64,000 nucleotides of DNA from Candidatus Curtissbacteria bacterium (GCA_016183325.1 JACPEV010000008.1:472-64471), one strand, 5' to 3'; shown: positions 7,632 through 53,409, counted from the stretch's first letter. The notes: generated by a model from the letters alone, not told the origin. Numbers and translations are program-made.

Positions 7632-7740
7632 GTTTCACCTCCTTCGGCAGATTACCTCTTGGACAATATAGTAACTAATTTAGGCCGACATATCAATCAT
7701 TTTAGTACTTTTTATTGTCTTTGCGCTAATAGAATTTTAC

Positions 7741-7766
7741 ATCCACTCCCCGATGTGAATTAGCTT
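7741..7766. promoter_or_regulatory. conserved motif CCACTCCCCGATGTGAATTAG, copy 2
   Basis: 23 of 24 positions match 6984-7007. It lies about 110 nt upstream of the 7071-7631 gene start. Confidence 0.35.
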
Positions 7767-7770
7767 GGAA

Positions 7771-8331: not shown

Positions 8332-8382
8332 TGTGAGGGAAAAATATCATGAATCATGCTTTTTGTCAAAAGAAAAACTGAA

Positions 8383-8530
8383 AGCGCCGCGCAATAGATA
8401 AACGCGACGTAAAATATTTAGCTTCAATTAGCCTCAATAATACAAAGGGGCAAAAATTGTCAATTTTAGAATTTAGCCCTTCCACTTTGCTCAGGATCTA
8501 TGATCTCGACTCCCCTGTCGATACCATTCC
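8383..8530. repeat. ~150-nt intergenic repeat family, copy R1
   Basis: Aligns with 10183-10327 (…ttagcctc-a-aata…ttttagaatttagcccttc…actcccctg-t-g-tacc). It begins with gcgccgcgcaat. Confidence 0.5.
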
Positions 8531-8600
8531 AAAGTTTTATCTCATTCATTTGGACGTATATTGTTTGTGACAATTGAAGACTGGCTGGTATAATTAATCT

Positions 8601-8897
8601 ATGAAAACGAATGTTGAGCAAATTAAAGAGACTTTAGACCAAAACATGAAACTTCTTAGGGACAAATATGGTGTAAAACAACTCGGGGTGTTTGGCTCAG
8701 TCTCTCGCGGAGAAAATATTGAAACAAGTGATATTGATTTACTTGTTGAATTTTCAAAGCCAATCGGTCTTTTTAAATTTATCGAGCTAGAGGAATATCT
8801 TGGTGAACTTTTAGGTAATAAGGTCGATCTAGTCACAAAGGACGCCCTAAAACCAGCAATCAAAGAAGATGTTCTAAGGGAAGTGATTTATGTCTAA
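8601..8897 (+). CDS. mntA: MntA-type nucleotidyltransferase antitoxin
   Basis: GVFGSVSRGENIETSDIDLLVEF matches the GSxxRG…DxD minimal NTase motif. It overlaps hepT by 8 nt. Confidence 0.75.
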   Translation: MKTNVEQIKETLDQNMKLLRDKYGVKQLGVFGSVSRGENIETSDIDLLVEFSKPIGLFKFIELEEYLGELLGNKVDLVTKDALKPAIKEDVLREVIYV

Positions 8898-9228
8898 AAA
8901 GAGATATAGAGTTTATCTAGACGATATATTAACTTCGGTAGAAAGAATAAAAGATTACACAAAGAATTTATCCAAAGAAGATTTTCTCAAAGATCTGAAA
9001 ACTATAGATGCTGTTGTGAGAAACATCGAAATACTAGGCGAAGCGGCAAGAAATATTCCAGAAGATTTTAAAGAAAAATATCCCGAACTTCCATGGTCAA
9101 AAATGATAAGTATGAGAAACAAGGTGATTCACGAATATTCAGGGATTGATCTTGAAATACTTTGGCAAACGGTCCAAGAGGATATACCAAGCCTAGAAGA
9201 TCAGGTTAAAGAATTAGTAGAAAATTGA
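8890..9228 (+). CDS. hepT: HepT-type (DUF86) toxin
   Basis: RNKVIHEY matches the Rx4HxY motif near the C-terminus. 112 aa. Confidence 0.75.
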   Translation: MSKKRYRVYLDDILTSVERIKDYTKNLSKEDFLKDLKTIDAVVRNIEILGEAARNIPEDFKEKYPELPWSKMISMRNKVIHEYSGIDLEILWQTVQEDIPSLEDQVKELVEN

Positions 9229-9245
9229 GGCAACTTATCGAATCT

Positions 9246-9336
9246 GCCTGAGGAATGTGGGAATTCCTAAGTCGTCTACCATTTTTAGGTTCAAAACCAA
9301 TCAATAACTCCAAGAATGTATTAAGCCATTCTTCAG
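9246..9336 (+). repeat. decayed copy of the ftsZ 3' end (att-like direct repeat, copy 1) plus hairpin ccaagaatg…cattcttc
   Basis: ttatcgaatctgcctgaggaatgtgggaattcc matches ttatctaatttgtctgaggaatgtggggatgtc at 13614-13646 in 27 of 33 positions, same orientation. It is about 85% identical to 11042-11142 over roughly 85 nt. Confidence 0.55.
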
Positions 9337-9400
9337 TTCTCAAAAGGTAAGACTAGAATAACCAATAGTAGGGAAAATAGCAACAAGTTTAAAGGCTGCT

Positions 9401-9769
9401 CTAGGGAGTAGGCTGGCTTGCCTGTGGCTTGTTACTTGAAAATTGACCAAAAAGGTCAGAAAGATTTTTGATCTGATCAGAAGATAAGCTAGTTTTGATA
9501 TCATCAAACCATTCACTCAATAAGGCATCGTATTCATTTTGAAAGGCTTGCTCTAGCTGCTCTGCACTAGCCACTTGATCTATTGAGGGATTTGTATCGG
9601 TGGTGGCACTTTCTTCGAAAACTTGTAACTTTTCTTGAGGAATTTCCTGTAACATTTTTGTAGCGGTTCTTTGCTTGATTGTTGTAAAAAAATCCTCTAC
9701 GAATGCTTCTTTATCGTCTTGATACCCAATTATCTCAAGAATTTTTAAAATAAACTCTTTTCTTTGCAT
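9401..9769 (-). CDS. hypothetical acidic protein
   Basis: 122 aa, no recognisable family. Adjacent to 9772-10128. Confidence 0.3.
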   Translation of the reverse strand: MQRKEFILKILEIIGYQDDKEAFVEDFFTTIKQRTATKMLQEIPQEKLQVFEESATTDTNPSIDQVASAEQLEQAFQNEYDALLSEWFDDIKTSLSSDQIKNLSDLFGQFSSNKPQASQPTP

Positions 9770-9771
9770 TA

Positions 9772-10128
9772 TTAGCTTCTTTTTGTAAATCTTCCTTTTT
9801 CATCTCTAGGTTGTTCATATCTGTGAGGAAAAAACCTTCGACTACCTCCAAGAATGAAGTAATTAGCTCCTACCGCTGATGAAATAAGTCCAGCTGCCTT
9901 TACAATATCTCCTTCAGCAATAGCAATGGACCCGAACGTGGCGGCAGCAGAATCCAGCGCAGTCATAAAAACAAGACCAGCTTTTGTCAGTCCAGTTTTA
10001 TTCTCTATAACCTGCAAGGCATTTTTTGCTGATGTCGTTGCTTTTTCTAAAAAAGATTTTGACGAATCTGTAGGAGATTTTTCGGAAAGACCTTGATTTT
10101 CGCTAAATTCACTGTTACCTTCGCTCAT
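9772..10128 (-). CDS. hypothetical protein
   Basis: 118 aa, Ala/Gly-rich central region. No family recognised. Confidence 0.3.
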   Translation of the reverse strand: MSEGNSEFSENQGLSEKSPTDSSKSFLEKATTSAKNALQVIENKTGLTKAGLVFMTALDSAAATFGSIAIAEGDIVKAAGLISSAVGANYFILGGSRRFFPHRYEQPRDEKGRFTKRS

Positions 10129-10182
10129 TACATATATTATAACATTTTCTTACTTAATACGATTTTTAAAAAAGCGTCGCAC

Positions 10183-10327
10183 AATTATGTTTGTGCGCCT
10201 ATGAAAAATTAGTCTCGTTTAGCCTCGAAAATAAATAGTCGCAAAACGGGTGGTTTTTAAATTTTAGCCCTTCGATAAACTCTGGATTTTCAGCCTCAAC
10301 TCCCCTGCTCGGACTACCCTGTAGTTT
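10183..10327. repeat. ~150-nt intergenic repeat family, copy R2
   Basis: See 8383-8530. It begins gcgtcgcacaattatgtttgtgcgcc, a hairpin also found upstream of hicB. Confidence 0.5.
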
Positions 10328-10329
10328 TC

Positions 10330-10710
10330 CTATCGGAGCGGATTTAGGGTTTTTATGTCTTGCATGGGGAAATGCTTGGTATTCAGAGAGACCAGTTCAA
10401 GATCGTTTACATTGGCACAACCAGCAATTAAACAATCATCTAAGGTGAGATTTTTTAGTTGTTTTGAGTATTGCTGGCAGTAGAGACCGCCAATTTTTGC
10501 GGTTTTTTGGTCTAGATTGAAAATTATATGCTGGTTTAAAAAATCCTCCGTAGTTGACAATTCAGATGGAAAAACATTTCTGAAAATTTCTGCGATTGAA
10601 ATAACGGATATTGCCAGTGGTGATTTTTCTTTGAGTTTTGAGACTTTCTCTTTAACATCCTTTTTGCCTCGCAAAATCCAAATTAAGATATCTGTGTCTA
10701 GGAGAAACAT
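10330..10710 (-). CDS. vapC: VapC PIN-domain toxin
   Basis: MFLLDTDILIWILRG… carries the PIN acidic residues (D5, E, D). 126 aa. Confidence 0.75.
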   Translation of the reverse strand: MFLLDTDILIWILRGKKDVKEKVSKLKEKSPLAISVISIAEIFRNVFPSELSTTEDFLNQHIIFNLDQKTAKIGGLYCQQYSKQLKNLTLDDCLIAGCANVNDLELVSLNTKHFPMQDIKTLNPLR

Positions 10711-24406: not shown

Positions 24407-25420
24407 TTACGAACTCTTGAATGCGAAACGAATGATTTTGTCTAAGAGCTGCGGGTAGGAAATACCATCAGCTTGCGCGGCCTTGGGCAGAAGAGACATG
24501 GGGGTTAATCCTGGAATAGTATTAACTTCTAAAACACAGACGTTATTCCCTTTTATAATCATGTCTACCCTACCGAAACCTCTACATCCAAGAGATCTAT
24601 ATGCATCAAGCGCTGCTTTTTGAGCTATCTTGGTTAATTTTTGGCTGAGCCTGGCTGGGACGATTTCTTTAGTTTGATTGTCGAAGTATTTGGCATTGTA
24701 ATCAAAAAATTGGCGAGTTGGCACAATTTCAACTAAGGGCAAAGCCGTTGGATTATCGTTACCAAGGATTGATCCGGTGAGTTCTATGCCTTTTATATAT
24801 TCCTCGACCAGAGCAAAACGACTAAAGCTTAAGGCTATCTCTAGAGCTTGTTTTAACTCTTTTCTTTTATTCACTTTGGAAGATCCAATTGATGATCCCT
24901 GGTTAGACGGTTTAATAAAAAGAGGGAAAGAAAATTGTCTCAAGACTTTTTTAAGACTGTTACCTTTTTCGAAAACGAGATATCGCGGGGTTTCCAAGCC
25001 TGCCTGAGTAAACAATTTCCTTGAGTAAATTTTGTCCATTCCGAGAGCTGAGGCTAAAACCCCGGATCCAGTGTAAGGAATGTCTATCAATTCTAAAAAT
25101 CCTTGAATAGTTCCATCTTCCCCAAAGTGTCCATGCATAGCTATAAAAAACAATTGACAATTGACAATTGACAATTGACCAAAATGATAATTTACTTTAC
25201 CAAGAATAAAAGATTTTCCATCTTTTGAAATTACAATGGGTAAAACTTCGTATTTTTGGAGATCCAAATTCTTGACCACTTCCCTACCCGAAATCAGAGA
25301 GATTTCATGTTCGGGAGATTTGCCGCCCATTAAAACGGCAACTTTGATTTTGCCAGTTTTGTTATTTTGTTTCTTTGATTTTGGCTCCAATGGTTGAGAG
25401 CCTTTCGACGATGTTTTCAT
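24407..25420 (-). CDS. ddl: D-alanine--D-alanine ligase
   Basis: ATP-grasp signature, EHEISLISGREV, C-terminal NTIPG. It contains an in-frame (caattgaca)x4 insertion, see 25151-25180. Confidence 0.85.
   Translation of the reverse strand: MKTSSKGSQPLEPKSKKQNNKTGKIKVAVLMGGKSPEHEISLISGREVVKNLDLQKYEVLPIVISKDGKSFILGKVNYHFGQLSIVNCQLFFIAMHGHFGEDGTIQGFLELIDIPYTGSGVLASALGMDKIYSRKLFTQAGLETPRYLVFEKGNSLKKVLRQFSFPLFIKPSNQGSSIGSSKVNKRKELKQALEIALSFSRFALVEEYIKGIELTGSILGNDNPTALPLVEIVPTRQFFDYNAKYFDNQTKEIVPARLSQKLTKIAQKAALDAYRSLGCRGFGRVDMIIKGNNVCVLEVNTIPGLTPMSLLPKAAQADGISYPQLLDKIIRFAFKSS
25151..25180 (+). repeat. tandem nonamer (CAATTGACA)x3.3 inside the ddl coding sequence
   Basis: Read directly. In frame, it encodes …QLSIVNCQLFF… just before the conserved HG.FGEDG of Ddl. 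Confidence 0.6.
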
Positions 25421-26620: not shown

Positions 26621-26656
26621 AAAATTGAAAATTGAAAATTGAAAATTGAAAATTTC
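26621..26656 (+). repeat. tandem octamer (AAATTGAA)x4 in the murA-murB spacer
   Basis: Read directly. Related to the CAATTGACA repeats. Confidence 0.5.
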
Positions 26657-38889: not shown

Positions 38890-38921
38890 AACAATTAACA
38901 ATTGACAGTTAACAATTGACT
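38890..38921. promoter_or_regulatory. three direct AACAATTRAC repeats at ~10-11-nt phasing upstream of mraZ (candidate MraZ operator)
   Basis: acaattaacaattgacagttaacaattgac lies about 130 nt upstream of the mraZ start. It is the same motif as the intragenic CAATTGACA repeats. Confidence 0.4.
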
Positions 38922-40878: not shown

Positions 40879-41487
40879 TTACAGCCTTTCCATTTCTCTA
40901 TTTGCTTGTTCCGGACTAATGCTAGCAATCTGTTGGCTTTCTTTTGTCACGTAAAGGGTATCAGAATCATCGAGAAATTTGAGTTGAGATCTTTCGTATT
41001 TTCCCAGGCCAAGGTATTTGGCAATATCTCCTTCTCGTTGTTTAAATTCTTGGTCTTCAATTCTCAATTCCGGAACGTATGAATTGTTTGTAGGATCAAA
41101 ATATTCTACTTTTAATAATCTGACACAAGCCCCAACGCCGGTTTCATCCTGGGATACGATTAGCGACTGGCAAATCTGCCGCATCGGAGGATTCCAAAAA
41201 TCGCCAGGCTTCATATCGTTCATTGCTCTATACCTGAAACCTACCCTATTTTTTTCAAAAGCTTCAGCTTCGGAAATCCTCACCCGCCTATTGATTCCAA
41301 TAAGAGAGATTACTATTCTGCCATCTTTTGAAAGCTCTTCAGTTAATTTTATGACATTATTTTGGAATAATTGTGACGTTCTTGATTCAGGTGATTTGTC
41401 TTCTGGTCTTTCAGCCATTTTTTCATCCTCTTCCATTCCCGCTGATAAGTTGTCGTCTTGCTTCTCTAATGATATAAGAAAATGCAT
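40879..41487 (-). CDS. hypothetical protein ending in the shared C-terminal tail (ISPEQANREMERL); island gene 6
   Basis: The annotated start overlaps the helicase by 64 nt. Likelier starts are MEEDEK at 41436 or MAERPE at 41418, the latter 5 nt after the helicase stop and preceded by GGAAGAGGA. Confidence 0.5.
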   Translation of the reverse strand: MHFLISLEKQDDNLSAGMEEDEKMAERPEDKSPESRTSQLFQNNVIKLTEELSKDGRIVISLIGINRRVRISEAEAFEKNRVGFRYRAMNDMKPGDFWNPPMRQICQSLIVSQDETGVGACVRLLKVEYFDPTNNSYVPELRIEDQEFKQREGDIAKYLGLGKYERSQLKFLDDSDTLYVTKESQQIASISPEQANREMERL

Positions 41488-44400
41488 TCAACCTATCTTT
41501 GGGCATTCTATCGGTAACTGATAAATCTTGCAAAATCCGAATGCAGAATTCTTCTGCTTGAGGCCAATCCCATCCTGTGATTCTCGAAATTGGTCGGATT
41601 AAGTTTGTCCTGTAATCTCTGAAGTCTTGTATGGAAACTCCTCGTAAGAAATCTAAAATTGAGTTTTCCCTTTTAATAAGGGGTTCACCAGTCAAGATAA
41701 GTTCAACATCTTTATCAGTATCCACACTACGAATCTCTATTTCCGGCTTCTGTGTAGTTGTGACGTTTGGATTATATATTTCAAAGTGATCAAGCTCTAA
41801 ACGGAGCTGTGGCGACGGATAATCTGTTCCAGGACTCTTCCTCACTCTGCGGTTTGCCTTGGGACCTATGCTTAACCAGGCGCGTGAATCAGTAAGTAAT
41901 TCCAAGTCAGACAGGGTTAGACCTTTTAAGTCTACTTCTCCAACTTTTTGCGCCAAAATCGACCATCCAAGGCTTTTCTTGGTGCCGAGCTTACTAATTC
42001 CAATTGCACGCCCGCTATATTCTTGGTCAACCTTAAAACCAAAATGTTCTTCAAGAGCTGCTGTAAATTTTCTGAACTTGTCATCGTCTAAAACTCTTTC
42101 CGGTAAAGTTAGGGAGAAATAACCACTATTTTTAAGGACTCGGTTGCTTTCCCTTAGTATCTTCGTTCTTTCGGAATCTTCTGCCTTCACAGAACCTTTA
42201 TTTGAAAGTGAGGAATAATGTAGAACAAAAGCATTATCCAAAAAGTCATACGTATCATCCCGAGACTCTAGCTCATCGGCTCTTCCGAATTTTGCAGTAC
42301 CACCAAATATTCTTGCTTTTTCCCATCCTACTTGCAAAATATATGGATTAATGTCGACGTTATCAATACCCCTTTTTAGCTTTCTTTGCAGAAGAAGGGT
42401 CCCTGCGCCAACGCTCAAAATTTGACTTTCCTCTTCTGATTTAGTTTTAATCAGATGGCTTACGAAGTCAGCATTATATCCTGTTATATGATACTCATCT
42501 CTTCCTTCATCATAAAATTTAACCGCGATTCTTTGCGGATCTATCTCGTTTGTATGAAACATTTCAAGCGTCCTCTCTGCCCCCGCACCTGTCATGTTAT
42601 GGAAAGCTGTTGAGAGATATAATGAATCTTTGCTTCTAATTTCAATCCTATTCCCAAGTCTTTTAGAATCAAAAAATTCTTGTTGATCTGGATGTAAAAC
42701 AATTCCGGAAAGTGCCATTCTTGAAAGTAGATATGAGTAAACAACTGCTTCACCTTTACCTTGATCAACCATATCTTTAACTTCCAAAACCAGATTTTCG
42801 ACAGGGACAAGTTGTCCTTGTCTTTGCGATCTTCCTACCATCTGTTTTAACTGTTGAAAATGCCAGGGGGGTCCTAAGAAAATTTTTCTTACACCTACAA
42901 TCTCCCTGTCTTGTTCGTCCTTCAGGGCGTTTAATGTGTAATCCCTACTTTGATAGGTGGCTTCAAGCGTGACCAACATAAGCGCAGAACTTGGATTATT
43001 GACCCATCGAGAAATGACAGCTTCCCGCGGCCTTCCCACCCCGATTGTTCCATCTATCATTAATATGTCTTCAGGTGAACATAGACCGCTTACCCAAGAT
43101 TTTAGGAGAGTCATCAACTTAAAATCATTTATCGTATCCAATTCGTAACTTGTATATAAATTTGTTACTGACCCATCCTCTTGATTTATTGCTCGCTGCA
43201 AGACATCACCAGTTCGCCCTTGTCTACGTGAAGGAGAAATAATAAATACTTTGTCTCTAACTATTCTTCCATCTTCTGACTGCCTCCATGTCAACGAATC
43301 CGTGACGAGTCGTTTTAACGTTTTATATTTGGTTGATAACTTCCGACTCATCCAAAATTTTCTTAATTCAGCCAGGTCGGCATCAGAAGAATCTTTGGTA
43401 AGTTCTTCTACTAATGTATCCACTCCATTTTCTAAAAGCTCACTAAAGAAACAGGATAGTACTAAATCTCCCATTCCAATTTCGACTAGTCGATCTGCGC
43501 TTAAAAAATCTTCAGATTTTTGTGGAGAATCTACTCCCTTGAACTCTTTCCATTTGGGAACTATGAGTTTTAATATATTCAAAGTTTCGTCAATATCCAT
43601 TTCCTGAATTTTATCTTTTGCCATTCTTCGAATCTCCACTTTAGTGAGAAGTGGGTTCAGCAATGCATCTTCCAATAACCTAATCTTATTAAGAGGATTT
43701 GTTTGTATGTTGTCTTCAATGAATTGATGCAAATATTCTTCAAAGGGAGATGCTTGAATACTAAAAGGTGTGTATCTGAATTCTTGTACTCCGGTGGCCT
43801 GTTCCCACCTAAACATTCTTTTTTCTCCAATTAATGACATGTATACCAGGTCAGGGCGATTTAAATGGGCATCGCTAAAGGTTTTTCTTCTTGCAGTCGA
43901 AAATTCATGAACAGGAACATATTCAGATGGATATAGAATTGACATAGGCACATTTAAGTTGGCAAGTTTACTTCTGATTGGAGTGGCAGTAAGTCCCAGG
44001 ATCGGCGCATCTTCGTTTCCGGTTCTTTCTTGATAATTTTGACGTATTTTGCCGATTAAATGGAGTAATGCCTTAGAAGAAATTGCATCGTAATTATTGA
44101 AGTTATCAATCTCGTCAATTATTGAAGCGTCTACTTTTGCTGATTTAATTAGGGTTTCCTCAAGCAAAGGAAGCAAATTTGAATCACTTTGCGTGTCTTC
44201 CAGTAATTCTTGGCTAATAACTATATATTTCTTGCCTGAGTTTGCCGCATTTTTCAGCTCACCAGATCCTTTGACAATGTAAACTTGATCCGGATTGGTA
44301 AACGCAACATTTGATTCAATTTCCCATGTTTCTTTCCCTGCTGCTGTTGCAAAAACCAACACTCTTGCAGCATCCGAGTTTTCCATAGCTAGGTAAGCAG

Positions 44401-45394
44401 CGCTAGTTTTTCCAAGTCCCGTATCAGCTGCCAAAAGCCTTGTATTATGCCTTACAAAGTCGTAACAAAATGTTCTCTGTTCAAATGAGGGGAATGGCCT
44501 GGTTTGGTCTTTGACTTGAATTTGGGATTTAAATTCTCCTTTCAGCGGGAAAGTGGCTATATCATAAAATCGTTCGTGAATTTTTTCCAAAAATTGTTTT
44601 TTATCGGGATCTGTGCATTGCTTGATCACCTCTTCAAATTGTTTCATTCCCTCTTGAAGCCCGGCGTCCGTAATACTTCTTGAAAGGCTTTGTTCCAAAT
44701 AATTTTGAACTAAGTTGTATTTAATTGCATATATATTTCTAAAAATTTTCTTGGGGACTCTGTCTATCATGTCAACGATATCCATGTCTCTTTGAGGCAT
44801 AGTTCCAGTAAGAAGTCCAATATAAGGTCTGATAAGAGCAGTGGTTACCCAGGCACGGAGTTCTTCAATTTTTTTGGCATCCGTGACATTCTCGAATAAT
44901 TCCAATGTCATGATTTGACCTACTACCTCTAGAGGCCAACCGGCATCGACAAGCTCTTTGACATTAATATTCTCTGCCAACTTTGTTTCTACGACCTTTT
45001 GCGCTTCTTCATCCTCATGAGTCCCTCGCTTTATATGTCCTTTTTCTACTAGTAAAAGCTGCAAGTCTTCATACAATTCTTTGCCATGTGCTTTAATTTC
45101 TGCTTCTGCTTGCAGGCGTTCCTCATCAGATTTGAGTTGAATTACCATATCATCTCGAGGGATAAAATTCCTGAGAAGGAAAAGGGGGTCTTTTTGTTGC
45201 GCGTATATTCCACCTTCAATAAGCTTTTTCGCATAGTAAAATTTATGTCTAAGACGTGTTGAAGATGCGTAATTAGCTTCAAAAGTGCTACTTCCTTGCC
45301 AGTTTAGAACCCGATCTTCAAAATCGGGTGGTAGGATTATTTCTCCTTGTGGAGCCTCGTTCAGTCTCTCAATCATTAGGACTGATTTTATCAA
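41423..45394 (-). CDS. large SF2 helicase fused to a class I SAM-dependent methyltransferase-like domain (N-terminal ~320-aa unknown domain, C-terminal ~250-aa unknown domain)
   Basis: Helicase motifs I ADTGLGKTS, III LTATP and VI QMVGRSQRQGQ. MTase motifs I ILSVGAGTLLL, II DDTYDFLDNAFVLH and the RVLKNSGYFSL block. The annotated start is TTG; the ATG at 45376 (MIERLNEAPQG) is likelier. Confidence 0.7.
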   Translation of the reverse strand: MIKSVLMIERLNEAPQGEIILPPDFEDRVLNWQGSSTFEANYASSTRLRHKFYYAKKLIEGGIYAQQKDPLFLLRNFIPRDDMVIQLKSDEERLQAEAEIKAHGKELYEDLQLLLVEKGHIKRGTHEDEEAQKVVETKLAENINVKELVDAGWPLEVVGQIMTLELFENVTDAKKIEELRAWVTTALIRPYIGLLTGTMPQRDMDIVDMIDRVPKKIFRNIYAIKYNLVQNYLEQSLSRSITDAGLQEGMKQFEEVIKQCTDPDKKQFLEKIHERFYDIATFPLKGEFKSQIQVKDQTRPFPSFEQRTFCYDFVRHNTRLLAADTGLGKTSAAYLAMENSDAARVLVFATAAGKETWEIESNVAFTNPDQVYIVKGSGELKNAANSGKKYIVISQELLEDTQSDSNLLPLLEETLIKSAKVDASIIDEIDNFNNYDAISSKALLHLIGKIRQNYQERTGNEDAPILGLTATPIRSKLANLNVPMSILYPSEYVPVHEFSTARRKTFSDAHLNRPDLVYMSLIGEKRMFRWEQATGVQEFRYTPFSIQASPFEEYLHQFIEDNIQTNPLNKIRLLEDALLNPLLTKVEIRRMAKDKIQEMDIDETLNILKLIVPKWKEFKGVDSPQKSEDFLSADRLVEIGMGDLVLSCFFSELLENGVDTLVEELTKDSSDADLAELRKFWMSRKLSTKYKTLKRLVTDSLTWRQSEDGRIVRDKVFIISPSRRQGRTGDVLQRAINQEDGSVTNLYTSYELDTINDFKLMTLLKSWVSGLCSPEDILMIDGTIGVGRPREAVISRWVNNPSSALMLVTLEATYQSRDYTLNALKDEQDREIVGVRKIFLGPPWHFQQLKQMVGRSQRQGQLVPVENLVLEVKDMVDQGKGEAVVYSYLLSRMALSGIVLHPDQQEFFDSKRLGNRIEIRSKDSLYLSTAFHNMTGAGAERTLEMFHTNEIDPQRIAVKFYDEGRDEYHITGYNADFVSHLIKTKSEEESQILSVGAGTLLLQRKLKRGIDNVDINPYILQVGWEKARIFGGTAKFGRADELESRDDTYDFLDNAFVLHYSSLSNKGSVKAEDSERTKILRESNRVLKNSGYFSLTLPERVLDDDKFRKFTAALEEHFGFKVDQEYSGRAIGISKLGTKKSLGWSILAQKVGEVDLKGLTLSDLELLTDSRAWLSIGPKANRRVRKSPGTDYPSPQLRLELDHFEIYNPNVTTTQKPEIEIRSVDTDKDVELILTGEPLIKRENSILDFLRGVSIQDFRDYRTNLIRPISRITGWDWPQAEEFCIRILQDLSVTDRMPKDRLNAFSYIIREARRQLISGNGRG

Positions 45395-45529: not shown

Positions 45530-47524
45530 TCATGCCTCTAAAAGCTTTACTAGTTGTTCGTTTGCCTCATCAGGAGAAATTGGTTGTGCTTTATCTCGAT
45601 TATTTTGTTTTTCTATTATTTCAACTATTAGTTGAATCAGCTCAGGAGCGTAGTGCTCAATAGGATGTCCTCCCTGATCGAGGTAAATCTCAAACCATTC
45701 TTGATGATCTTTCCTAAATTCTTTCGCTATCTGATCAATTACTCTTGAATTTTTTTTACGTAAATGATCCATTATGCCTCCTCTTGTCATCCAACCTTCC
45801 GGTGCTCGGCCATATCGTGTGAGCTCTTTGATAATTAACTCTTTCAATTCTGGTGAGTAATGCTCACGAATTCTGCCGTTTGAATCTACATAAAACTGAT
45901 GCCACTCGGGATGATTTTCTTTAAATTTATCGGCTCTATTACCCACAATTAAAGTGCTTCTCTTAATTTCTTTTGCTAAAGCTTCTTTTGTTATCCAGCC
46001 ATCTGGTTGATTTTTAAAGTTTGCGACATGCTCGATAATTAATGCAACGAATTCTGGTGAGTAATAATTATTGGGATGACCAGTCCGACTCAGAAATGTT
46101 TTGAACCAATCCAGATGCTCTTTTTTATATTTTTCTGCTAACCTTTCAACAAATTTCGGCGATTTTTCAACCAGTTCTGCTAAGCGCGCATTTGGGACCC
46201 ATCCTTCAGGAACAATATCGTATTTTGTAAGTTCATTTGTTAAGAAGGATACGAATTCGGGTGAATAATGATCCCGAAGAAACCCATTTCTAGCAACATA
46301 ATTTTTGGCCGATTCCGGATGTTGATCTCCAATTTGTTTAATTAATCTTTCAATAGGCCTCCTGGTTTTTCCTAATCGTTTTGCCAATTCTGTAATCGTT
46401 ATCCACCCTTCAGGTGCTTCGGTACCACCCTTTAATTCTTCTTCGGAAAATTCTATACCCAAAGGACTAAATGCAGATTTGAGGATCTCAAGCCGTAAGT
46501 TTTCGAATGATGGGTGCTCGCGACGAGGATTTCCAAACATTCTGCTGAAGTTCTTTTTTGATCTAACTTTTTCCCTAACGAATTGCTTTGCTTCTTCAAT
46601 TCTTCCTGTAATGACTGTCCCGTCTTTATCTAAGAAGGTTTCTATAAAATCTGGAAATTCTTGCAAAAATATCTCTCTTACGGCTTCAAAAATTTCTTCT
46701 CTATCTCTAGTATGCCAAATCCTCGGGTGAGCAAAATCGCTGTTATTAAATTGTACTCCCCAGGGTTTAAATGCTTTTTTAATAGCAGTTATGTAGCTTC
46801 CCTGGAAATAAGGTACTGCACCTTTTTGAACGGGTGTTCCACCAATAATTTGCGCAAATTTAATCTGATTTCCAATTTTCTCTTTAATAAATTCTTTCGC
46901 CGTTTCTTGGAAATTACTTTTTATTTGTCCATCATCATCTCTTGGAAATAAATCATTAAATTCAGGAAAGTTTTCAAGAAATAATCCTTGAATGTTGCCA
47001 ATGCCTATTTGTTCATTCTCTTCGGTGGTTTTGTCTGGAAATTTCCAGCGAACTTGTCCTATTGCATCTTTTAAAATTATTGGCCTATTTTTATCGCCAT
47101 TTGGTGAAGTATCTTTTGCAATTTCATTTCCTGGTAGCTCAATTCCCCAAGGAGCGAAGGATTTTTTAAAAACAACTAGGTAAGAGCCTTCAAAATATGG
47201 GCAAGATCTCTTATCACAAGCAACTCCAAAAGACATATAAAATTGTCTATTTTTGAAGACGTGGCTAAGTATAAATTCTCTTGCTTGTTCTACCCTGTTA
47301 CCATCAACTTTACCATCCTGATCTCTAAGAAATTGTAAATTAAAATCTGGAAACTTTTCTAGAAAAAGCGCTTGCACATTTCTAATGCCCAGCCGCTCAT
47401 TTTCCTCCAAGGTGTTGCCAGGTAGATGCCAACGTATTCGGCCTCCTCTATCCCTAAGAACTGTTGGCTTAGATATAGGAGAATATTCTGATAGTGACTG
47501 AGGATTTTCTTCTTCTTTTATCAT
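45530..47524 (-). CDS. repeat-rich protein with shared C-terminal tail (…PISPDEANEQLVKLLEA); island gene 4
   Basis: 664 aa. Two N-terminal copies of a ~110-aa 'RDRGGRIRWxLPGN…FLExFPxFN' domain plus a degenerate third. Then four tandem ~68-aa 'PEGW-T…LA…R…HxEW…HYSPE' repeats that look HTH-like. Confidence 0.55.
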   Translation of the reverse strand: MIKEEENPQSLSEYSPISKPTVLRDRGGRIRWHLPGNTLEENERLGIRNVQALFLEKFPDFNLQFLRDQDGKVDGNRVEQAREFILSHVFKNRQFYMSFGVACDKRSCPYFEGSYLVVFKKSFAPWGIELPGNEIAKDTSPNGDKNRPIILKDAIGQVRWKFPDKTTEENEQIGIGNIQGLFLENFPEFNDLFPRDDDGQIKSNFQETAKEFIKEKIGNQIKFAQIIGGTPVQKGAVPYFQGSYITAIKKAFKPWGVQFNNSDFAHPRIWHTRDREEIFEAVREIFLQEFPDFIETFLDKDGTVITGRIEEAKQFVREKVRSKKNFSRMFGNPRREHPSFENLRLEILKSAFSPLGIEFSEEELKGGTEAPEGWITITELAKRLGKTRRPIERLIKQIGDQHPESAKNYVARNGFLRDHYSPEFVSFLTNELTKYDIVPEGWVPNARLAELVEKSPKFVERLAEKYKKEHLDWFKTFLSRTGHPNNYYSPEFVALIIEHVANFKNQPDGWITKEALAKEIKRSTLIVGNRADKFKENHPEWHQFYVDSNGRIREHYSPELKELIIKELTRYGRAPEGWMTRGGIMDHLRKKNSRVIDQIAKEFRKDHQEWFEIYLDQGGHPIEHYAPELIQLIVEIIEKQNNRDKAQPISPDEANEQLVKLLEA

Positions 47525-48871
47525 TCATTCCTCTAAAAACCTTCTTAATTGTTCGTTGGCTTCGTCGGGGGAGATTGAATCCTTTTCTATCTTTTCTTTT
47601 GGTGAATAGTTGCCCCCTTTGAGCGCGTCCATTATATCTTCTTGATTGTAAAGCTCAACAACTTTACCAGAAATGTCGCGACCGGTAATAACATTAATAT
47701 TTCTTCCACGAAGGTGGCGACGCATAGTTGCTGTTTGAAGCCCAAATGATTTTCGAAAATAAAATTGGGGCACCCATGTTTGATTGTTTTCATCGGTGTA
47801 GAGTCCCGTCACCTTATCCACTCGGGGTAAGTTTAAAAATTCGCTGATCTTTTCTGAAGCTTTCGATTCGTCGAAAAGGACTACTTCCGCACCAACCCTA
47901 CTTCTACCTTGTATCTGGGGGACATCAACAAGTAATGATGATAACGAAGTTCCACTAACCTGGAATCTGCTTCGAAGCACTCTTCTAGATACCCAACTGG
48001 AAGTACTGTTTTCTGTATACGAGCCTGTTTCGTTATTTACCCTAGGTAGCAGCAAAAAATTATTTATTTGACTTGTCACTTCGGGCACATTGTAGAGAAT
48101 GGTTTCGTGGCCAACCCCATCTCTGCCAGCTATAGATCGAACTCCTTGCATGAACTTTGATAGTTTTTCAGCACTAAGACCGTGATTAACTTTAAAGTAA
48201 TTAGCAGGGGCCCAACATTCTCCGTCTTCGTTTTGATATTGACCGATTGAACTATCAACTTGCGGGAGCGCAAAAAATTCGTTAATTCTTCTTGAAACTT
48301 CAGCTTCATTGTAGAGTCTAATTTCATGACCTTTAAGACCTACTCCTGCTCTTGATGGAACGCCGATCAAACGTTTAGACAAAGTTGGTCCGTTGATTTT
48401 AAAATTCTTTCTAAAAAAATAGGAGGAGGCCCAATTATTACCGTTTGCGTCCGTCCAGCGAGTTTCCTTATCAACCTTCGGTAAAGAAAGGTCGAGTCCC
48501 CAAGGATTGAAAGATTTTTCTAAAACGAAGTGATATGATCCTTGAAAATACGGGACTGTATTTTTCGAAAAAGGGGATTCTCCTGTTAGAGCAACAAACT
48601 CTTGTCTTTTACCTATTCTATCTAATATAAATTCTTCTGCTTGACCTCTTTTATCCTCTATAATTTTTTCATCTTCGCCCTTGGGGAAAAGTTCATTAAA
48701 CTCTGGATATCTTTCTAAGAAGATTGCTCGAATGTTTTTTATTCCAAGCATTAAGTTCTCTTCTTCAGAGTTGCCTGGAAGCGACCAGCGAATTCTGCCT
48801 CCTTTATCACGAAGAATTGACGGTACTTGGATTTCTTGATTTTGTGTTAGTAATGTTTCTTTTGCCATCAA
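47525..48871 (-). CDS. repeat-rich protein with shared C-terminal tail (…SISPDEANEQLRRFLEE); island gene 3
   Basis: 448 aa. One RDKGGRIRWSLPGN domain, then four ~70-aa 'W…YF-K-F…LS-L…GR-GVG-E…LYNE-EV…I-EFL-LPRV…TG-YT' repeats. The true start ATG overlaps the upstream stop (TGATG). Confidence 0.55.
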   Translation of the reverse strand: MMAKETLLTQNQEIQVPSILRDKGGRIRWSLPGNSEEENLMLGIKNIRAIFLERYPEFNELFPKGEDEKIIEDKRGQAEEFILDRIGKRQEFVALTGESPFSKNTVPYFQGSYHFVLEKSFNPWGLDLSLPKVDKETRWTDANGNNWASSYFFRKNFKINGPTLSKRLIGVPSRAGVGLKGHEIRLYNEAEVSRRINEFFALPQVDSSIGQYQNEDGECWAPANYFKVNHGLSAEKLSKFMQGVRSIAGRDGVGHETILYNVPEVTSQINNFLLLPRVNNETGSYTENSTSSWVSRRVLRSRFQVSGTSLSSLLVDVPQIQGRSRVGAEVVLFDESKASEKISEFLNLPRVDKVTGLYTDENNQTWVPQFYFRKSFGLQTATMRRHLRGRNINVITGRDISGKVVELYNQEDIMDALKGGNYSPKEKIEKDSISPDEANEQLRRFLEE

Positions 48872-49728
48872 TTCTCCAAAAGTCTTTTTAGCTGTTCGTT
48901 AGCTTCGTCGGGGGAAATAGTTGATTCTGCAGGTCTGTAAAGTCTTGTGTCTCCTTTGTGAAATATCCTGCGATCGATTAATTTTTGTTCTCCTTCTTGA
49001 TTAACTAAGAAAATTTCTAAAAATGTATTGCTTTTTTCATCGACTTTTGGTTGAAAAGCTAGCTCTTTTCCGTAAGACGTTCGTATTTCTTTATTATTTA
49101 ATACGACGGCTTTACCTCTAACCATTCCTATATGAAAGCTGTCTGTTCGAGTGAAATTCCACGTCCAAAATTCTTTCAGCATGTGTGGTTCTATCTCTTT
49201 TCTTCCACCGAGGTAATCTAAAAAAATCTGTCTTTCAAAACCATGCCAACTTTCTACTTTTAGGTTTTGAGCGTCAATCCTAAACGATTGAATTAGTTCA
49301 TTAAAATCTACTACATCCCTTAATCCTAATTCGTGGAAATCAATCCATTGATATAATTTATTTTCGTCTTCTCTAGGAAAAGCTAAGATTATTCCGCTGT
49401 TGCGGATAATTTTTTGCGATAATGGATTGAGGCTAAAGATTACTGTCCTTCCTTGAATTCTGCCACCTATGTAAAATCTTGTTCCGACTTTATTATCACC
49501 TCTGGCTTCTTCTATCAAAAACGGTGGAATTTCTTCAAAAGGAAATCTTCCTCTGAGAAAAGCGTGCAGAAAAGCTACGCCCTCCTCCTGGTCTACTGCG
49601 TATATGGGTGAAGGTTTCCATGGATCTGGCTCTACTTGCGAAGGATCAGACCTGTCTCCCAATTCCAAATCTATTATTTTAATGAATCGTTTACTATTGG
49701 GACTTTTTGGTTGCATCTCTGGATTCAT
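48868..49728 (-). CDS. hypothetical protein with shared C-terminal tail (…TISPDEANEQLKRLLEN); island gene 2
   Basis: 286 aa. The upstream gene's final GAGGAA (Glu-Glu) codons form the SD, and its TAA stop overlaps this ATG (TAATG). Confidence 0.5.
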   Translation of the reverse strand: MNPEMQPKSPNSKRFIKIIDLELGDRSDPSQVEPDPWKPSPIYAVDQEEGVAFLHAFLRGRFPFEEIPPFLIEEARGDNKVGTRFYIGGRIQGRTVIFSLNPLSQKIIRNSGIILAFPREDENKLYQWIDFHELGLRDVVDFNELIQSFRIDAQNLKVESWHGFERQIFLDYLGGRKEIEPHMLKEFWTWNFTRTDSFHIGMVRGKAVVLNNKEIRTSYGKELAFQPKVDEKSNTFLEIFLVNQEGEQKLIDRRIFHKGDTRLYRPAESTISPDEANEQLKRLLEN

Positions 49729-50843
49729 TATTCCTCCAAAAGTCTTCTTAACTGTTCATTGGCTTCGTCAGGGGAAATGATTACATCTACCGAATTTTTA
49801 TTTGTGTCACTAAGACCTAGCTTTGCTCTCAAAGCTCTAATACGACCTGGATAAGCTCGAATTGCACCCCATAGGTCATACCTGTTTTTTGCTTGCAATG
49901 CATTTCTTGTAAGTAATCCTTCCTGCTGGAAGAATTCCCAAGCCTCTTTTTCTATTACTTCTGAAGTCCAATATCCTTTCTTCCTTATTAGTCTAATATC
50001 AAGCCCTAGATCTCTTTTTAAGCCTGTCATTTTCCCAGGATAAAATTTACCAATAGCTGTTCTAAGATCGCCCCTTCCTTGCCTAGCTAATAAATTTGTT
50101 GTTAAATGTTCCTCTTCTCCTAAAAAAGCTAAAGCTGCTTTTCGGATTTCTTCTGGGGTCCAGTAATGATATGGCTTTGCAGATGGTCCTAAACCTAAAT
50201 CTTGTTTTAACTGCCTTATTCCACCTGGATAATGTCGTAGGATAGCATTAAGTAAGTCATTTCTATGGCCCTCGAAAAGCAATCGGGCGCTAATTTTTCC
50301 TTCTTGATCTAGAAACCCTTTGGACTCCTCGAAGATCATTTCCTTTGTCCAATAATTTCCAGGTTTTTTAATTATCTTAAGACCAAGATTTCTTCTGAGC
50401 CCCACCATTCCATCTGGATAATATTTAGCTACTGCAGCGACAAAGCTTGATAAGCCAGCTTTTACCAATGTTCGTTGTTTTAAGTCTGAGCCTTCTGTAT
50501 CCAATCTACGACCCTCGTGTTCTATATTGGTTAGCTCCCGCCAGAATCCGGATGGTCTTGATGATGAAGGTACGCCAAGATTCACTTTTAAACCTGAAAA
50601 ACCTCCAGGATAGTAATGAACAATACCATAAAGCAGATCAAACTTTCCTGCACGGCTCAAGTTAACTCTTGTAAGATCATTTCCTTGTTGAATAAATCCA
50701 GTTGCTTCTGCAAGAACAACCGCGCCTAATAATCCTTGATCTTCTAATAACCTCCAACGGATCCTACCTCTATCATCTCGCGGTATGTCAATAGATTGGA
50801 AATCTTCCTCGGTCTTAGTAGCAAAAACAGTTCTTTCAGCCAT
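49728..50843 (-). CDS. repeat-rich protein with shared C-terminal tail (…IISPDEANEQLRRLLEE); island gene 1
   Basis: 371 aa. N-terminal RDDRGRIRW motif, then about five ~68-aa 'L…AI…YPGG…L…LGL…YWT-EEI…F…EG-L' repeats. Confidence 0.55.
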   Translation of the reverse strand: MAERTVFATKTEEDFQSIDIPRDDRGRIRWRLLEDQGLLGAVVLAEATGFIQQGNDLTRVNLSRAGKFDLLYGIVHYYPGGFSGLKVNLGVPSSSRPSGFWRELTNIEHEGRRLDTEGSDLKQRTLVKAGLSSFVAAVAKYYPDGMVGLRRNLGLKIIKKPGNYWTKEMIFEESKGFLDQEGKISARLLFEGHRNDLLNAILRHYPGGIRQLKQDLGLGPSAKPYHYWTPEEIRKAALAFLGEEEHLTTNLLARQGRGDLRTAIGKFYPGKMTGLKRDLGLDIRLIRKKGYWTSEVIEKEAWEFFQQEGLLTRNALQAKNRYDLWGAIRAYPGRIRALRAKLGLSDTNKNSVDVIISPDEANEQLRRLLEE

Positions 50844-50973: not shown

Positions 50974-51140
50974 TTAATGATATATGGATAATTTTTGCGC
51001 AAGTTCTTTTTGGAGATTTTCGACCTTCACTCTTTCTTGTTTAGCCGTATCACGATCCCGAATCGTGACGGTGTCGTCTTCGAGTGTCGCAAAGTCTATG
51101 GTTATGCAGTAGGGTGTTCCGATTTCGTCCTGGGTGGAGC
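50974..51140 (-). pseudogene. displaced 3'-terminal fragment of glycine--tRNA ligase (att-like duplicate; right island boundary)
   Basis: The minus strand encodes …[52 protein letters not shown]. The intact glyS ends …[49 protein letters not shown]. Nucleotide identity is about 85% over ~110 nt. The fragment has no start codon. Confidence 0.65.
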
Positions 51141-51180: not shown

Positions 51181-51372
51181 ATGGGAATCATTGATCTAAG
51201 AAGAGTCTTGAAAAATCGTCGTTCCGGGTGGATCTCTATTTCGAAAGACTACAAAAGGGTTATTGCCAAAGACCAAACCTTAGGGGGTCTTGTCAAAAAA
51301 CTGCAAAGGCTTGGCAATCCCGAAGGATATCTTGTCAAGGCAGCGAACGATTATTCCAGATATGTGGGCTGA
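51181..51372 (+). CDS. small partner protein of the retropepsin cassette, copy 2 (divergent)
   Basis: 63 aa (…[19 protein letters not shown]…). It occupies the 3' part of the ORF-track frame 50995-51372. Its stop overlaps the next ATG (TGATG). Confidence 0.4.
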
Positions 51373-51899
51373 TGAAACCTGTTATTTTGCAGCCACCAAT
51401 AAAGATCTGGTATAAAACGCTTCCCGGATTTTCAAAAATCATTTGGCCAATACTTGATATCAAATTGTCTATAAATAGTTTCGTTCTTCCTCAACCTATC
51501 TTTTCGCTTGTAGATTCCGGTGCGAGTATTTCTATAATCCATCCACAGATAGCCGAGATATTAGGATTTGACCGAGAAAGATTAGGCAAATCGCGATCGT
51601 CAGGAAAATCAGCCAGCGGTGATTATAAATCTTGGATTTTACCGAATCTTGTTGAAGTAAATATTTATGGCCATTTGTTTAATTTTAGGTTCGAAGTATT
51701 AGATAATCCAAATCTTATGTGGCCATGTATTTTGGGAGAAGATTCAATCTTTCAAGTTGCCAAGGTTGATTTTTCAAAATTCAGAGGTTATTTTGAATTG
51801 AGGATTAGACTAAAAGAAGATAAATCTAGGAGTTTGGCCGAACTTGCTAAAAACACGTACGGTGCATGGAAAGAACCGGTTAGGAAAATTTCTTCATAA
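51372..51899 (+). CDS. retropepsin-like (clan AA) aspartic protease, cassette 2
   Basis: FSLVDSGASISIIHPQIAEILGFD. Start MKPVIL is coupled to the upstream stop. The ORF-track N-terminus (51228-) is probably not translated. Confidence 0.55.
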   Translation: MKPVILQPPIKIWYKTLPGFSKIIWPILDIKLSINSFVLPQPIFSLVDSGASISIIHPQIAEILGFDRERLGKSRSSGKSASGDYKSWILPNLVEVNIYGHLFNFRFEVLDNPNLMWPCILGEDSIFQVAKVDFSKFRGYFELRIRLKEDKSRSLAELAKNTYGAWKEPVRKISS

Positions 51900-53409
51900 G
51901 AATATTTGCAAGTGTGTCCACTTTTACTCTTTCCTGTTTGGCCGTGTCACGATCCCGGATCGTGACAGTGTCGTTTTCCAAAGTTTCGAAGTCGATGGTG
52001 ATGCAATAGGGTGTGCCGATTTCGTCTTGGGCGAAGTAGCGTTTGCCGATGTTGCCGCGATCGTCCCAAGCAACAGGTTGCAGTAAATGGTGAATGGATA
52101 ATTGTGAATAGAGCAAGCGGGCTTTTTTGACGAGATCGGGTTTATTGGCAAGAAGCGGGAAAACGGCGGCTTTAAAGGGGGCGAGTTTGGGGTGGAGTTT
52201 AAGAATTACTCTCTTTGCTATATCCCCCGAACCCGGTTTGGAGGATTTTTGCAAACCGGGTTCGTCTTTTGCTGGTTCCTCTGTATAAGCATCGATTAAG
52301 AAAAAAAGCGCGGCGCGATCGACTCCTCCCGAAGTTTCGATGATATATGGAAGGTATTTTTTATTTTTCGCAGGCTCAAAATAGGTCATATCGACGCCGG
52401 AATGTTTTTGATGCTGAGACAGATCCCAGTCTCCCCTATTGTGAATTCCTTCAAATTCTTTCCAGCCTCCGCCAGAGGCGGATAGATCGTATTCAATATC
52501 CCAGGCGTCTTTGGCGTAGTGAGCACGCTCGCCTTCTTCGTGCTGACGAAACCTAAGTTTGTCTTTTTTCATTCCGAGCTCCAAGTACCATTTCATGCGC
52601 TCGTTTTTCCAGTATTCGTACCATTTTTCGGATTCTTCCTTTTCTGGTTTGACATAATATTGAAGTTCCATTTGTTCAAATTCACGGGAGCGAAATGTAA
52701 AGTTACCGGGAGTAATTTCGTTTCGGAAGGCCTTGCCGATTTGGGCAATTCCGAAAGGAATTTGGACTCGAGTGGAATCGAGGATGTTTTTGAAATTGAC
52801 ATGGACACCTTGAGTGATTTCACCGCGAAGATAAACTTTTTGTTTGGCGTCTTCAACAACGCCGAGTTTGGCTTCAACAAGGAGATTGAATTTTTTAGGT
52901 TCTGTAAAATTGTGCTCTTTATCTTTGGTGGGATTTTCTACGATTTCTTTAAAATCATGCTTATTTTTACCATCCATGCAGTAAATGAACGGTAAAATTT
53001 CGCTTTGCTCTTGAGATAATGACCAAGAAGTTACATTTGTTGAGATCGAACTTGTCTTTGTAAAAACCATGTGCTTCAATTTCTCTTTTGCTTCTGTAAC
53101 ATTATCAGCCCTGAACCTCTTATGACAAATTTTGCATTCTACAAGTGGATCAGTAAACGCTTTGACATGACCGGAGGCTTCCCAGACTTTGGGATTCATG
53201 AGAATTGCAGTGTCGATGCCCACTACATCGTCCCTACCGTAAACCATCGACTGCCAAAAAGCCTTTTTGATGTTGTTTTTGAGCTCGACTCCGAGAGGAC
53301 CATAATCCCAAGTTCCCCCAAGTCCGCCGTAGATTTCAGAACCGGGATAAATAAAGCCACGACGCTTTGCGAGAGAAACAATTTTTTCTAAATTCGTAAT
53401 TTTATCCAC
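51880..53409 (-). CDS. glyQS: glycine--tRNA ligase (dimeric class II GlyQS type)
   Basis: 509 aa with class II motifs and an anticodon-binding C-terminus. Confidence 0.9.
   Translation of the reverse strand: MDKITNLEKIVSLAKRRGFIYPGSEIYGGLGGTWDYGPLGVELKNNIKKAFWQSMVYGRDDVVGIDTAILMNPKVWEASGHVKAFTDPLVECKICHKRFRADNVTEAKEKLKHMVFTKTSSISTNVTSWSLSQEQSEILPFIYCMDGKNKHDFKEIVENPTKDKEHNFTEPKKFNLLVEAKLGVVEDAKQKVYLRGEITQGVHVNFKNILDSTRVQIPFGIAQIGKAFRNEITPGNFTFRSREFEQMELQYYVKPEKEESEKWYEYWKNERMKWYLELGMKKDKLRFRQHEEGERAHYAKDAWDIEYDLSASGGGWKEFEGIHNRGDWDLSQHQKHSGVDMTYFEPAKNKKYLPYIIETSGGVDRAALFFLIDAYTEEPAKDEPGLQKSSKPGSGDIAKRVILKLHPKLAPFKAAVFPLLANKPDLVKKARLLYSQLSIHHLLQPVAWDDRGNIGKRYFAQDEIGTPYCITIDFETLENDTVTIRDRDTAKQERVKVDTLANILMKKFS

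Follow-up and report, generated by a model that had tools for sequence, protein, structure and literature searches.

Which function can be assigned to a row of genes whose products are built from different tandem repeats and all end in the same short peptide? This question is raised by positions 45530-50843 of a 64,000-nt stretch from a metagenome-assembled genome (MAG) of a Candidatus Curtissbacteria bacterium (GCA_016183325.1 JACPEV010000008.1:472-64471; the whole stretch is called the window here, and coordinates given without a locus name refer to it). Four genes, p371, p286, p448 and p664, encode the tagged proteins and are located directly upstream of a fifth, p1323, for a large protein which combines an SNF2/DEAD-like ATPase with a methyltransferase (MTase). 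The reading that we prefer, with a probability of roughly one in two, is that the tagged proteins are modular nucleic-acid-binding adaptors, probably for DNA, which would dock on the ATPase-MTase via their tails.

All genes of this locus are on the minus strand. The p371 gene (49728-50843, its product identical to NCBI HYU92_02810) encodes a head motif, five units of a module A and the C-terminal tag. It is followed by p286 (48868-49728), p448 (47525-48871; NCBI HYU92_02800) with one N domain, four B units and the tag, and p664 (45530-47524; NCBI HYU92_02795) with three N domains, four C units and the tag. These four open reading frames (ORFs) are co-oriented and their successive stops and starts overlap or abut, giving an operon-like arrangement. 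A gap of 135 nt separates p664 from p1323 (41423-45394), whose product of 1,323 aa is recognised by Pfam and PHROG matches as an SNF2/DEAD-like ATPase joined to a class-I S-adenosylmethionine-dependent MTase; then comes p202 (40879-41487), encoding a small conserved protein of 202 aa with a degenerate tag at 40882-40926 (ASISPEQANREMERL). In the NCBI annotation the genes of the tagged locus code for hypothetical proteins. The p286 protein consists of two copies of a ~100-aa module, here termed P (pattern FLxGRxxxEIxP...FxIGxxxGxxV...LAFxPxxDE), and the tag (48871-48918); its internal duplication is evident from a local alignment score of 54, compared to 28±4.8 (maximum 46) for shuffled sequences. 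By eye, the P module appears to recur several times in the long relatives P0113, P0151, P0123 and P0084, whose chains also include N, A and B units.

The modules were delimited by window-chopped BLAST searches and iterated hidden Markov models (HMMs), and their coordinates in the window were confirmed by translation. Pairs of units matched each other with BLAST E values of 1e-10 to 1e-22, which are relative to a database of five proteins, and single units scored 50-100 bits for A, B and C and 89-171 bits for N in the HMM searches. Unit A has 54 aa (consensus YWxxExIExEAxxFxxxxGxLxxxxLxxxGRxDLxxAIxxxYPGGxxxLxxxLG) and is repeated every 63-64 aa in p371, with five copies in all. The first copy has the head motif PRDDRGRIRW (50754-50783, residues 21-30) instead of the usual 'KPxGYW' start; this head-type unit (50574-50756, residues 30-90, 55 bits), with predicted helices at residues 36-52, 59-64, 68-77 and 81-89, is followed by unit 2 at 50382-50546 (residues 100-154, 55 bits), unit 3 at 50193-50354 (residues 164-217, 76 bits), unit 4 at 50004-50165 (residues 227-280, 72 bits) and unit 5 at 49815-49973 (residues 291-343, 72 bits). 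Unit B has 69 aa (consensus YTDxxGxxWVxxxxFxxxxGxxxxTLxxxLxxVxxIxGRxxxGxxxxLYNExEVxxxLxxFLxLPxVD) and a period of 73 aa; its four copies in p448 are at 48254-48460 (residues 138-206, 86 bits), 48035-48241 (residues 211-279, 87 bits), 47816-48022 (residues 284-352, 75 bits) and 47597-47803 (residues 357-425, 66 bits). The four copies of unit C in p664, 65 aa each (pattern PEGWxTxxxLAxxxxxxxxxIxRxxxxxxxxHPEWFxxYxxxxGxxxxHYSPELxxLI) with a period of 68 aa, are at 46223-46417 (residues 370-434, 93 bits), 46019-46213 (residues 438-502, 99 bits), 45815-46009 (residues 506-570, 102 bits) and 45608-45805 (residues 574-639, 98 bits). The N domain of ~110 aa occurs once in p448 (48479-48811, residues 21-131, 171 bits) and three times in p664, at 47126-47455 (residues 24-133, 163 bits), 46739-47071 (residues 152-262, 166 bits) and 46439-46714 (residues 271-362, 89 bits); this third copy is without the RDxGGRIRW head and matches the N domain of p448 with a BLAST E value of 5e-7.

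A first-pass annotation had described tandem repeats in these proteins, and the scores of 50-170 bits per unit bear this out, as they do the numbers of five A, four B and four C units and the single N domain of p448. Other details of it have to be revised. Two N domains had been counted in p664, where there are three including the head-less one; a degenerate N domain had been assumed in p371, which has just the 10-residue head in common with N and gives no match to the N HMM; and a repeat length of ~68-70 aa had been proposed throughout, whereas the periods of A, B and C all differ. Moreover, the repeats of p448 and p664 had been considered different, but B and C are homologous: comparison of their profiles by hhalign gave a probability of 87% with the first alignments and of 93.6% (E 2e-7 over 53 columns) with larger ones, unit C carrying a 6-residue insertion relative to B. 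Between A and N, or between either of these and B/C, no relationship was detected (hhalign probability at most 3%). The similarity by eye of PYFxGSYxxxIxxxFxPWGL in the second half of N to YPGGxxxLxxxLGL in A had let us consider N as an expanded A unit, which was given up at an hhalign probability of 1.4-2.3%.

With whole proteins and with single units, no model in Pfam, NCBIfam, PHROGs or PADLOC reached its curated cut-off, so that at the sequence level the first-pass annotation was right in naming no family. For unit C there are sub-threshold matches: its second copy matches HTH_29 (PF13551) at residues 445-492 of p664 with 25.3 bits (E 1.7e-5) and thus misses the gathering threshold (GA) of 28.1 bits for membership; within the first copy, residues 374-397 match the excise model TIGR01764 weakly (13.9 bits, cut-off 28.8, E 0.054). 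HTH_17 gave no match in Pfam scans of the whole proteins or the individual units, and the B units show scattered weak matches to helix-turn-helix (HTH) models (HTH_36, HTH_11, Mga, MarR_2). The whole of p371 has zero Pfam matches at E≤1. The best match of the N domain among PDB sequences is DNA polymerase lambda at E 1.5. For the A profile, designed proteins of the tetratricopeptide repeat (TPR) type appeared among PDB sequences at 4e-8; this match was rejected because every single stretch had an E value of 33, the total being an artefact of summing over repeats.

Structure prediction led further for B and, by homology, for C. Residues 1-210 of p448, that is N and the first B unit, were modelled by AlphaFold2 from an alignment of module copies with a predicted local distance difference test score (pLDDT) of 90.5 and a predicted template modelling score (pTM) of 0.76. 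Unit B (pLDDT ~93) is predicted as a winged HTH of the order β-β-α-α-β-β-α, its first copy showing strands at residues 138-140 and 146-149, helices at 150-157 and 161-167, strands at 173-177 and 183-188 and a helix at 189-200. The model has the topology of excisionase/MerR-type domains, that is an HTH, a β-hairpin wing and a C-terminal helix, here preceded by a β-hairpin. In Foldseek comparisons of N plus B against the PDB no match had E≤0.001, and the recognisable ones (55-90 columns) all fell on B: BldC with a TM-score (TMt) of 0.50 and 21-24% identity, PadR and the SMARCB1 winged helix. Against BFVD a phage excisionase ranked first for B (probability 1.00, TMt 0.65), next to HTH proteins, PrtN and BRO-N/antirepressor domains. 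By these models B is one sub-type, and C by homology to B another, of a single predicted excisionase/MerR-like winged HTH.

The same topology is shared by known proteins such as the lambda Xis-like recombination directionality factors (RDFs), BldC, PrtN and RdfS, as well as by the families HTH_17 and TIGR01764. In contrast to these, B is extended N-terminally by a further β-hairpin (YTDxxGxxW) and its wing is larger, C has the 6-residue insert HPEWF, and neither reaches the sequence-family cut-offs; both are covalently repeated, mixed with other modules and combined with a tag and an ATPase-MTase partner, and no recombinase is nearby. Where a DNA site consists of direct repeats, BldC and RDFs line up on it head-to-tail as non-covalent multimers (PMC5859096, PMC11963761). 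With 2-9 B/C units linked covalently, an array could imitate this order within one chain.

The predicted N domain is all-alpha, with helices at residues 36-54, 57-61, 72-86, 89-96 and 113-124 of p448, and its head forms two β-bridges packed onto the helical body. For p371 the AlphaFold2 model has a pLDDT of 83.9, with 85-94 for the units, each A unit consisting of four helices; the pTM is 0.39. The low pTM despite confident units suggests beads on a string. A TPR-like or alpha-solenoid nature of unit A was considered as well and not supported, as the pTM of 0.39 implies no superhelical stacking and Foldseek of the whole p371 against the PDB had a best TM-score below 0.2 at E above 0.1; the matches of this search to solenoid proteins are global alignments and without meaning. 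Of known repeats, the homing endonuclease associated HNH_repeat (PF18780) is comparable to A, being likewise a helical tandem unit of ~54 aa. On visual comparison the two patterns agree in that helix 1 is acidic, one G is conserved and the final helix is preceded by an aromatic-G-(S/G) turn. However, none of 25 A units matched PF18780 at E≤1 and the A HMM found no match in an HNH_repeat-like unit of the relative P0102; this resemblance is kept as a lead and not as an assignment.

These helical modules are where one may think of protein-protein interaction or scaffold repeats, or of tagged proteins that are themselves substrates of a protein MTase, which would recognise the tag as its peptide. 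N and A are all-helical and without detectable nucleic-acid-binding relatives, the class-I MTases include protein methyltransferases, and the invariant core of the tag, AN..L, contains N and Q residues. We nevertheless regard this explanation as quite improbable: B and C have a predicted DNA-binding fold, the array proteins are basic, the A units form no solenoid surface, several unrelated classes of tags exist on the same modules, and modules are found fused to SNF2 ATPases and LAGLIDADG endonucleases.

How widespread are these modules? A word-index search of 5.8 billion clusters yielded 6 relatives of p448 and 22 of p371; with the 54-aa alignment of A units it gave no match, this query probably being too short. 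An exhaustive HMMER search of 1.84 billion representatives with a composite profile of N, A and the tag (202 positions) found 1,057 proteins at E≤1e-3, of which 289 had E≤1e-30. The head PRDxRGRIRW opens nearly all relatives collected. Among 160 sequences inspected there were ~50 architectures, including A4 to A11, N-A3, N-B4, N-B5-A, A-B9, B5, N3-C4, N-C2, C-A5, A3-B4, N4 and N-A-B-A4, and the collected sequences hold 789 copies of A, 105 of B, 22 of C and 114 of N. Units are 25-50% identical, about equally within one protein and between proteins; A units at like positions in different proteins show no evident orthology, apart from a weak one of the last unit. Small units and short linkers are also typical of tandem DNA-reading arrays such as zinc fingers, Myb repeats and transcription activator-like effectors (TALEs), from which the present arrays differ by the absence of obvious hypervariable 'code' positions at this level of identity. 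That the repeats reflect chance or low complexity, or that the ORFs are not real genes, has practically no probability in view of the HMM scores of the units, the 1,057 homologous representatives, the confident AlphaFold2 models, the annotation of these genes by NCBI and their operon-like order.

The family is apparently centred on Patescibacteria, also called candidate phyla radiation (CPR). Three of six loci with an ATPase-MTase from GTDB genomes (L004, L005 and L007) are labelled Lysobacterales or 'uncultured Gammaproteobacteria' MAGs; the other three, the genome of the window and P0020 are named Patescibacteria or CPR. The former labels may be due to mis-binning or mislabelling rather than to a wider distribution.

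The tag ISPDEANEQLxxLLE ends p371, p286, p448 and p664 and is absent from the rest of the window, translated in all six frames. It has 16 residues with a charge of -4, is predicted to form an acidic amphipathic helix and is located at 49731-49778 in p371 (ISPDEANEQLRRLLEE, helix predicted at residues 358-370 by AlphaFold2), at 47528-47575 in p448 (ISPDEANEQLRRFLEE) and at 45533-45580 in p664 (ISPDEANEQLVKLLEA). Ten loci were compared: the window, three from homologue look-ups (L001-L003), five found in GTDB species genomes by means of an alignment of the helicase-MTase (L005-L009), and, separately, L012. In all of them 1-5 tagged modular proteins are encoded directly upstream of an ATPase-MTase. 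The tags differ among loci and agree inside a locus, with EAL/QAL in L002, ANAELMRFLE in L006 and, in L009, the diverged TPTDLERLLEL on the adaptor and APTDLEKLLEV on the small downstream protein. In L012 an unrelated tail, SFxxFLRRKQ, is present on both adaptors (8387-10526), upstream of a shorter SNF2-MTase of 1,121 aa. This belongs to a further class, ...SG(E/Q)x(I/M)SF(E/D)(E/D)F(L/I)xxK, found on A, N and B modules in L012, P0039, P0090, P0117, P0133 and P0153, and another class, (I/M)S(I/V/L)(V/M/L)DF(A/I)xxY(L/I)R, ends P0042, P0070, P0089, P0114 and P0155, which makes at least three tag classes in total. A short conserved terminal peptide is known from hub-and-tail systems like the C-terminal tail of the single-stranded DNA-binding protein (SSB) and the clamp-binding motifs. 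Common to many different proteins in the present case, it differs from these in its location on the adaptors, in its predicted helical form and in its co-variation with a partner encoded in the locus.

Three further observations concern the tagged clusters of other loci. The 529-aa tagged protein at 8298-9887 of L001 has another repeat (AYPxLxLxxWEF...YW), for which just a faint DUF4046 record was seen. At 6756-8227 the same cluster includes two untagged genes, for a 212-aa protein and a 260-aa methyltransferase of the TehB/Methyltransf_11 type. In L009 (Daviesbacteria) three B and three A units together with unassigned regions form one 1,206-aa protein (6223-9843) upstream of the ATPase-MTase.

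The partner enzyme, of 1,120-1,320 aa in the different loci, consists of an SNF2/DEAD-like ATPase and a Methyltransf_11 domain. The p1323 protein matches DEAD (21.9 bits, GA 26) and ResIII (18.1 bits, GA 22.5) below threshold and phrog_62, 'DNA helicase', with 2e-21; its orthologue in L001, 31% identical, matches SNF2-rel_dom with 26.3 bits (GA 24.9). A protein of 160-200 aa usually follows 3' of the ATPase-MTase; it carries the tag in most loci, a degenerate one in the window and none in L012. Tagged orthologues of p202 after the helicase-MTase are encoded in L002 (9696-10223), L003 (9724-10248), L005 (13361-13924), L007 and L008. No family match was found for small proteins of the p202 type.

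Adaptor modules and enzyme are in some cases parts of one polypeptide. In P0101 the head and six A units are joined in a single chain to SNF2-rel_dom (71.5 bits, 8e-20), Helicase_C (1.4e-10) and Methyltransf_11; this protein is collinear with p1323, has no tagged neighbours and is encoded in a glycosylation gene neighbourhood. In P0136 four N-type units are joined to the same MTase. In P0083 and P0102 the N module is followed by LAGLIDADG_3 and then by three A units, with an HNH_repeat-like unit (23.6 bits, GA 26) located immediately before the A units of P0102. A units thus adjoin LAGLIDADG_3 in tandem as HNH_repeat does, which is a shared context and not homology.

Taken together, an adaptor would be a string of small, independently folding modules with short basic linkers, capped by PRDxRGRIRW in many proteins and ended by the C-terminal tag in nearly all. 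The modules would bind nucleic acid, probably DNA, and B/C arrays might line up along the duplex like covalently linked Xis or BldC protomers. The tag would dock each adaptor on the SNF2-type ATPase-MTase encoded just downstream, and different adaptors could bring this one enzyme to different sites or substrates. The anatomy, the homology of the modules, the fold of B, the family size, the synteny and the fusions are results of computation. The first-pass annotation had regarded the repeats as typical of nucleic-acid-binding arrays; this gains support for B from the winged HTH model and for C as its homologue, and for A and N from circumstances such as basic pI, fusions and the HNH_repeat-like unit, and none of the repeats turned out to be a known domain with an established role other than nucleic-acid binding. 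A and N probably bind nucleic acid as well, because they replace B/C in the same architectures, because their linkers are of a basic K/R-P-G type, because array proteins mostly have an isoelectric point (pI) of 9-10, and because of the fusions to SNF2 ATPase and LAGLIDADG domains. The docking of the tag on the ATPase-MTase is most likely, since a covalent link replaces the tag in P0101 and since the tag co-varies with the locus. What the ATPase-MTase does after recruitment we can only infer.

Several points weigh against the adaptor model. For the most likely docking partner of the tag, the evidence is genomic, namely synteny, co-variation within loci and fusions. Foldseek E values for B are 0.07-1 and thus not significant alone. 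Neither N nor A could be matched to an entry of Pfam, NCBIfam, PHROGs, PADLOC, the PDB (by sequence or by fold) or BFVD (by fold). With a pI of 7.0 and 6.7, p448 and p664 are near neutral. The arrays are linked to no candidate target repeats. Finally, the motif (D/N/S)PP(Y/F/W) is absent from six of six helicase-MTase or MTase fusion proteins. The MTase domain was also tested for an amino-DNA methyltransferase of the restriction-modification (R-M) type, and no Pfam match of the N6_Mtase or MethyltransfD12 type was found in it; generic Methyltransf_11, _25, _31 and UbiE models alone match. For such a generic class-I MTase lacking the motif, DNA methylation is not indicated and an RNA or protein target is possible.

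This leads to RNA as the ligand: the adaptors would bind RNA, their modules would select RNA substrates, and the partner would be an RNA helicase fused to an rRNA- or tRNA-type methyltransferase. The Methyltransf_11/UbiE/Methyltransf_25 type of the MTase and its lack of the DNA amino-MTase motif would fit, as would a weak Methyltransf_8 (Rrp8-like) match in P0101, the sub-threshold DEAD and ResIII matches as the ones that p1323 itself obtains, and the location of the loci amid housekeeping and translation genes, for example glyS and cysS. However, SNF2-rel_dom scores above GA in the orthologues from L001 and P0101, and SNF2 ATPases are translocases on duplex DNA; furthermore, the fold neighbours of B are DNA-binding excisionase, MerR and PadR proteins, and N and A are fused to LAGLIDADG domains of DNA endonucleases. 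An RNA-directed system therefore appears unlikely to us.

A defence against mobile elements, or another R-M-like system, has to be weighed at the same place. The tagged proteins would then be interchangeable specificity subunits in the manner of HsdS, serving the ATPase-methyltransferase. The pairing of an ATPase with an MTase is typical of R-M, BREX and DISARM systems, the helicase region matches phrog_62, and the number (1-5 per locus) and composition of the adaptors vary between related loci, with extensive shuffling of modules. In type I R-M systems (HsdS, HsdM and HsdR), too, the specificity proteins are separate, variable and modular and work with a methyltransferase and a superfamily 2 (SF2) ATPase, but the tagged system is devoid of Methylase_S, N6_Mtase and nuclease domains and of a DPPY-type motif, and its adaptors are arrays of small domains with a putative docking tail instead of two target recognition domains (TRDs) joined by coiled coils. 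Speaking against defence are this absence of a nuclease and of DNA-MTase motifs, and PADLOC matches of the locus proteins at noise level only (mad1 0.01, Csa3 0.051, mad2 0.0022). In addition, tblastn with p371 and p448 against 50,697 phage records, by which a phage origin was tested, gave no match, the locus is placed beside glyS in the window and in L002, and the fused single gene for P0101 has its glycosylation gene neighbourhood. A role in defence is accordingly not what we expect, and to none of the families compared here can the tagged proteins be assigned.

The surroundings of the locus are those of an ordinary chromosome, with glyS, recO, GATase and a mraZ-mraW-ftsL-PBP cluster (PBP, penicillin-binding protein). 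The true glyS gene is at 51880-53409 (minus strand). A ~150-nt remnant of its 3' end at 50990-51135 (minus strand), just upstream of p371, resembles 51880-52030 with ~80% DNA identity, and stop codons break up the single frame translated; between both glyS 3' copies there is an ORF resembling a gag-aspartyl-protease at 51228-51899 (plus strand). This appears to be the trace of a small insertion which hit the 3' end of glyS and duplicated or replaced the end of the gene. In L002, too, a glyS-like gene lies shortly upstream of the tagged genes, from which a small DUF433 gene separates it. Elsewhere in the window there are 7-bp tandem repeats, (ACAATTG)x4.3 at 25150-25179, (AAAATTG)x4.9 at 26621-26654 and (AACAATT)x4 at 38890-38920, the last just upstream of mraZ; the pattern AATTGWMAATTG has 10 matches compared to 0.21 expected. 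Possibly, these repeats serve as regulator boxes of the dcw region.

No adaptor/ATPase-MTase system of this kind was described in the literature searched, and a family of ~1,000 metagenomic sequence clusters is contained in none of the annotation libraries searched. If the adaptor model is true, N and A would each define a new domain family, and the B/C units a new subfamily of excisionase-like winged helices in the form of covalent arrays. The tail would be a clear example of a short docking peptide evolving together with its partner enzyme, and the fusion of SNF2 with a class-I methyltransferase, for which no substrate is obvious, would have an as yet unassigned activity. A number of Patescibacteria genes now annotated as 'hypothetical protein' would receive other annotations, and the small, shuffle-tolerant, beads-on-a-string modules might serve as designable binders. 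Despite the very small genomes of CPR bacteria, this lineage retains an operon with as many as five paralogous multi-domain proteins and a 1,300-aa enzyme. Tentatively, one may see in this a hitherto unrecognised recruitment system centred on CPR bacteria, in which at least four kinds of shuffled nucleic-acid-reading modules, among them N and A as new folds or families, and a co-evolving docking helix would send one motor-modifier enzyme to many genomic or RNA addresses. By analogy, and with the same reserve, such a system might be the functional counterpart, in bacteria with tiny genomes, of transcription factors that recruit chromatin remodellers.

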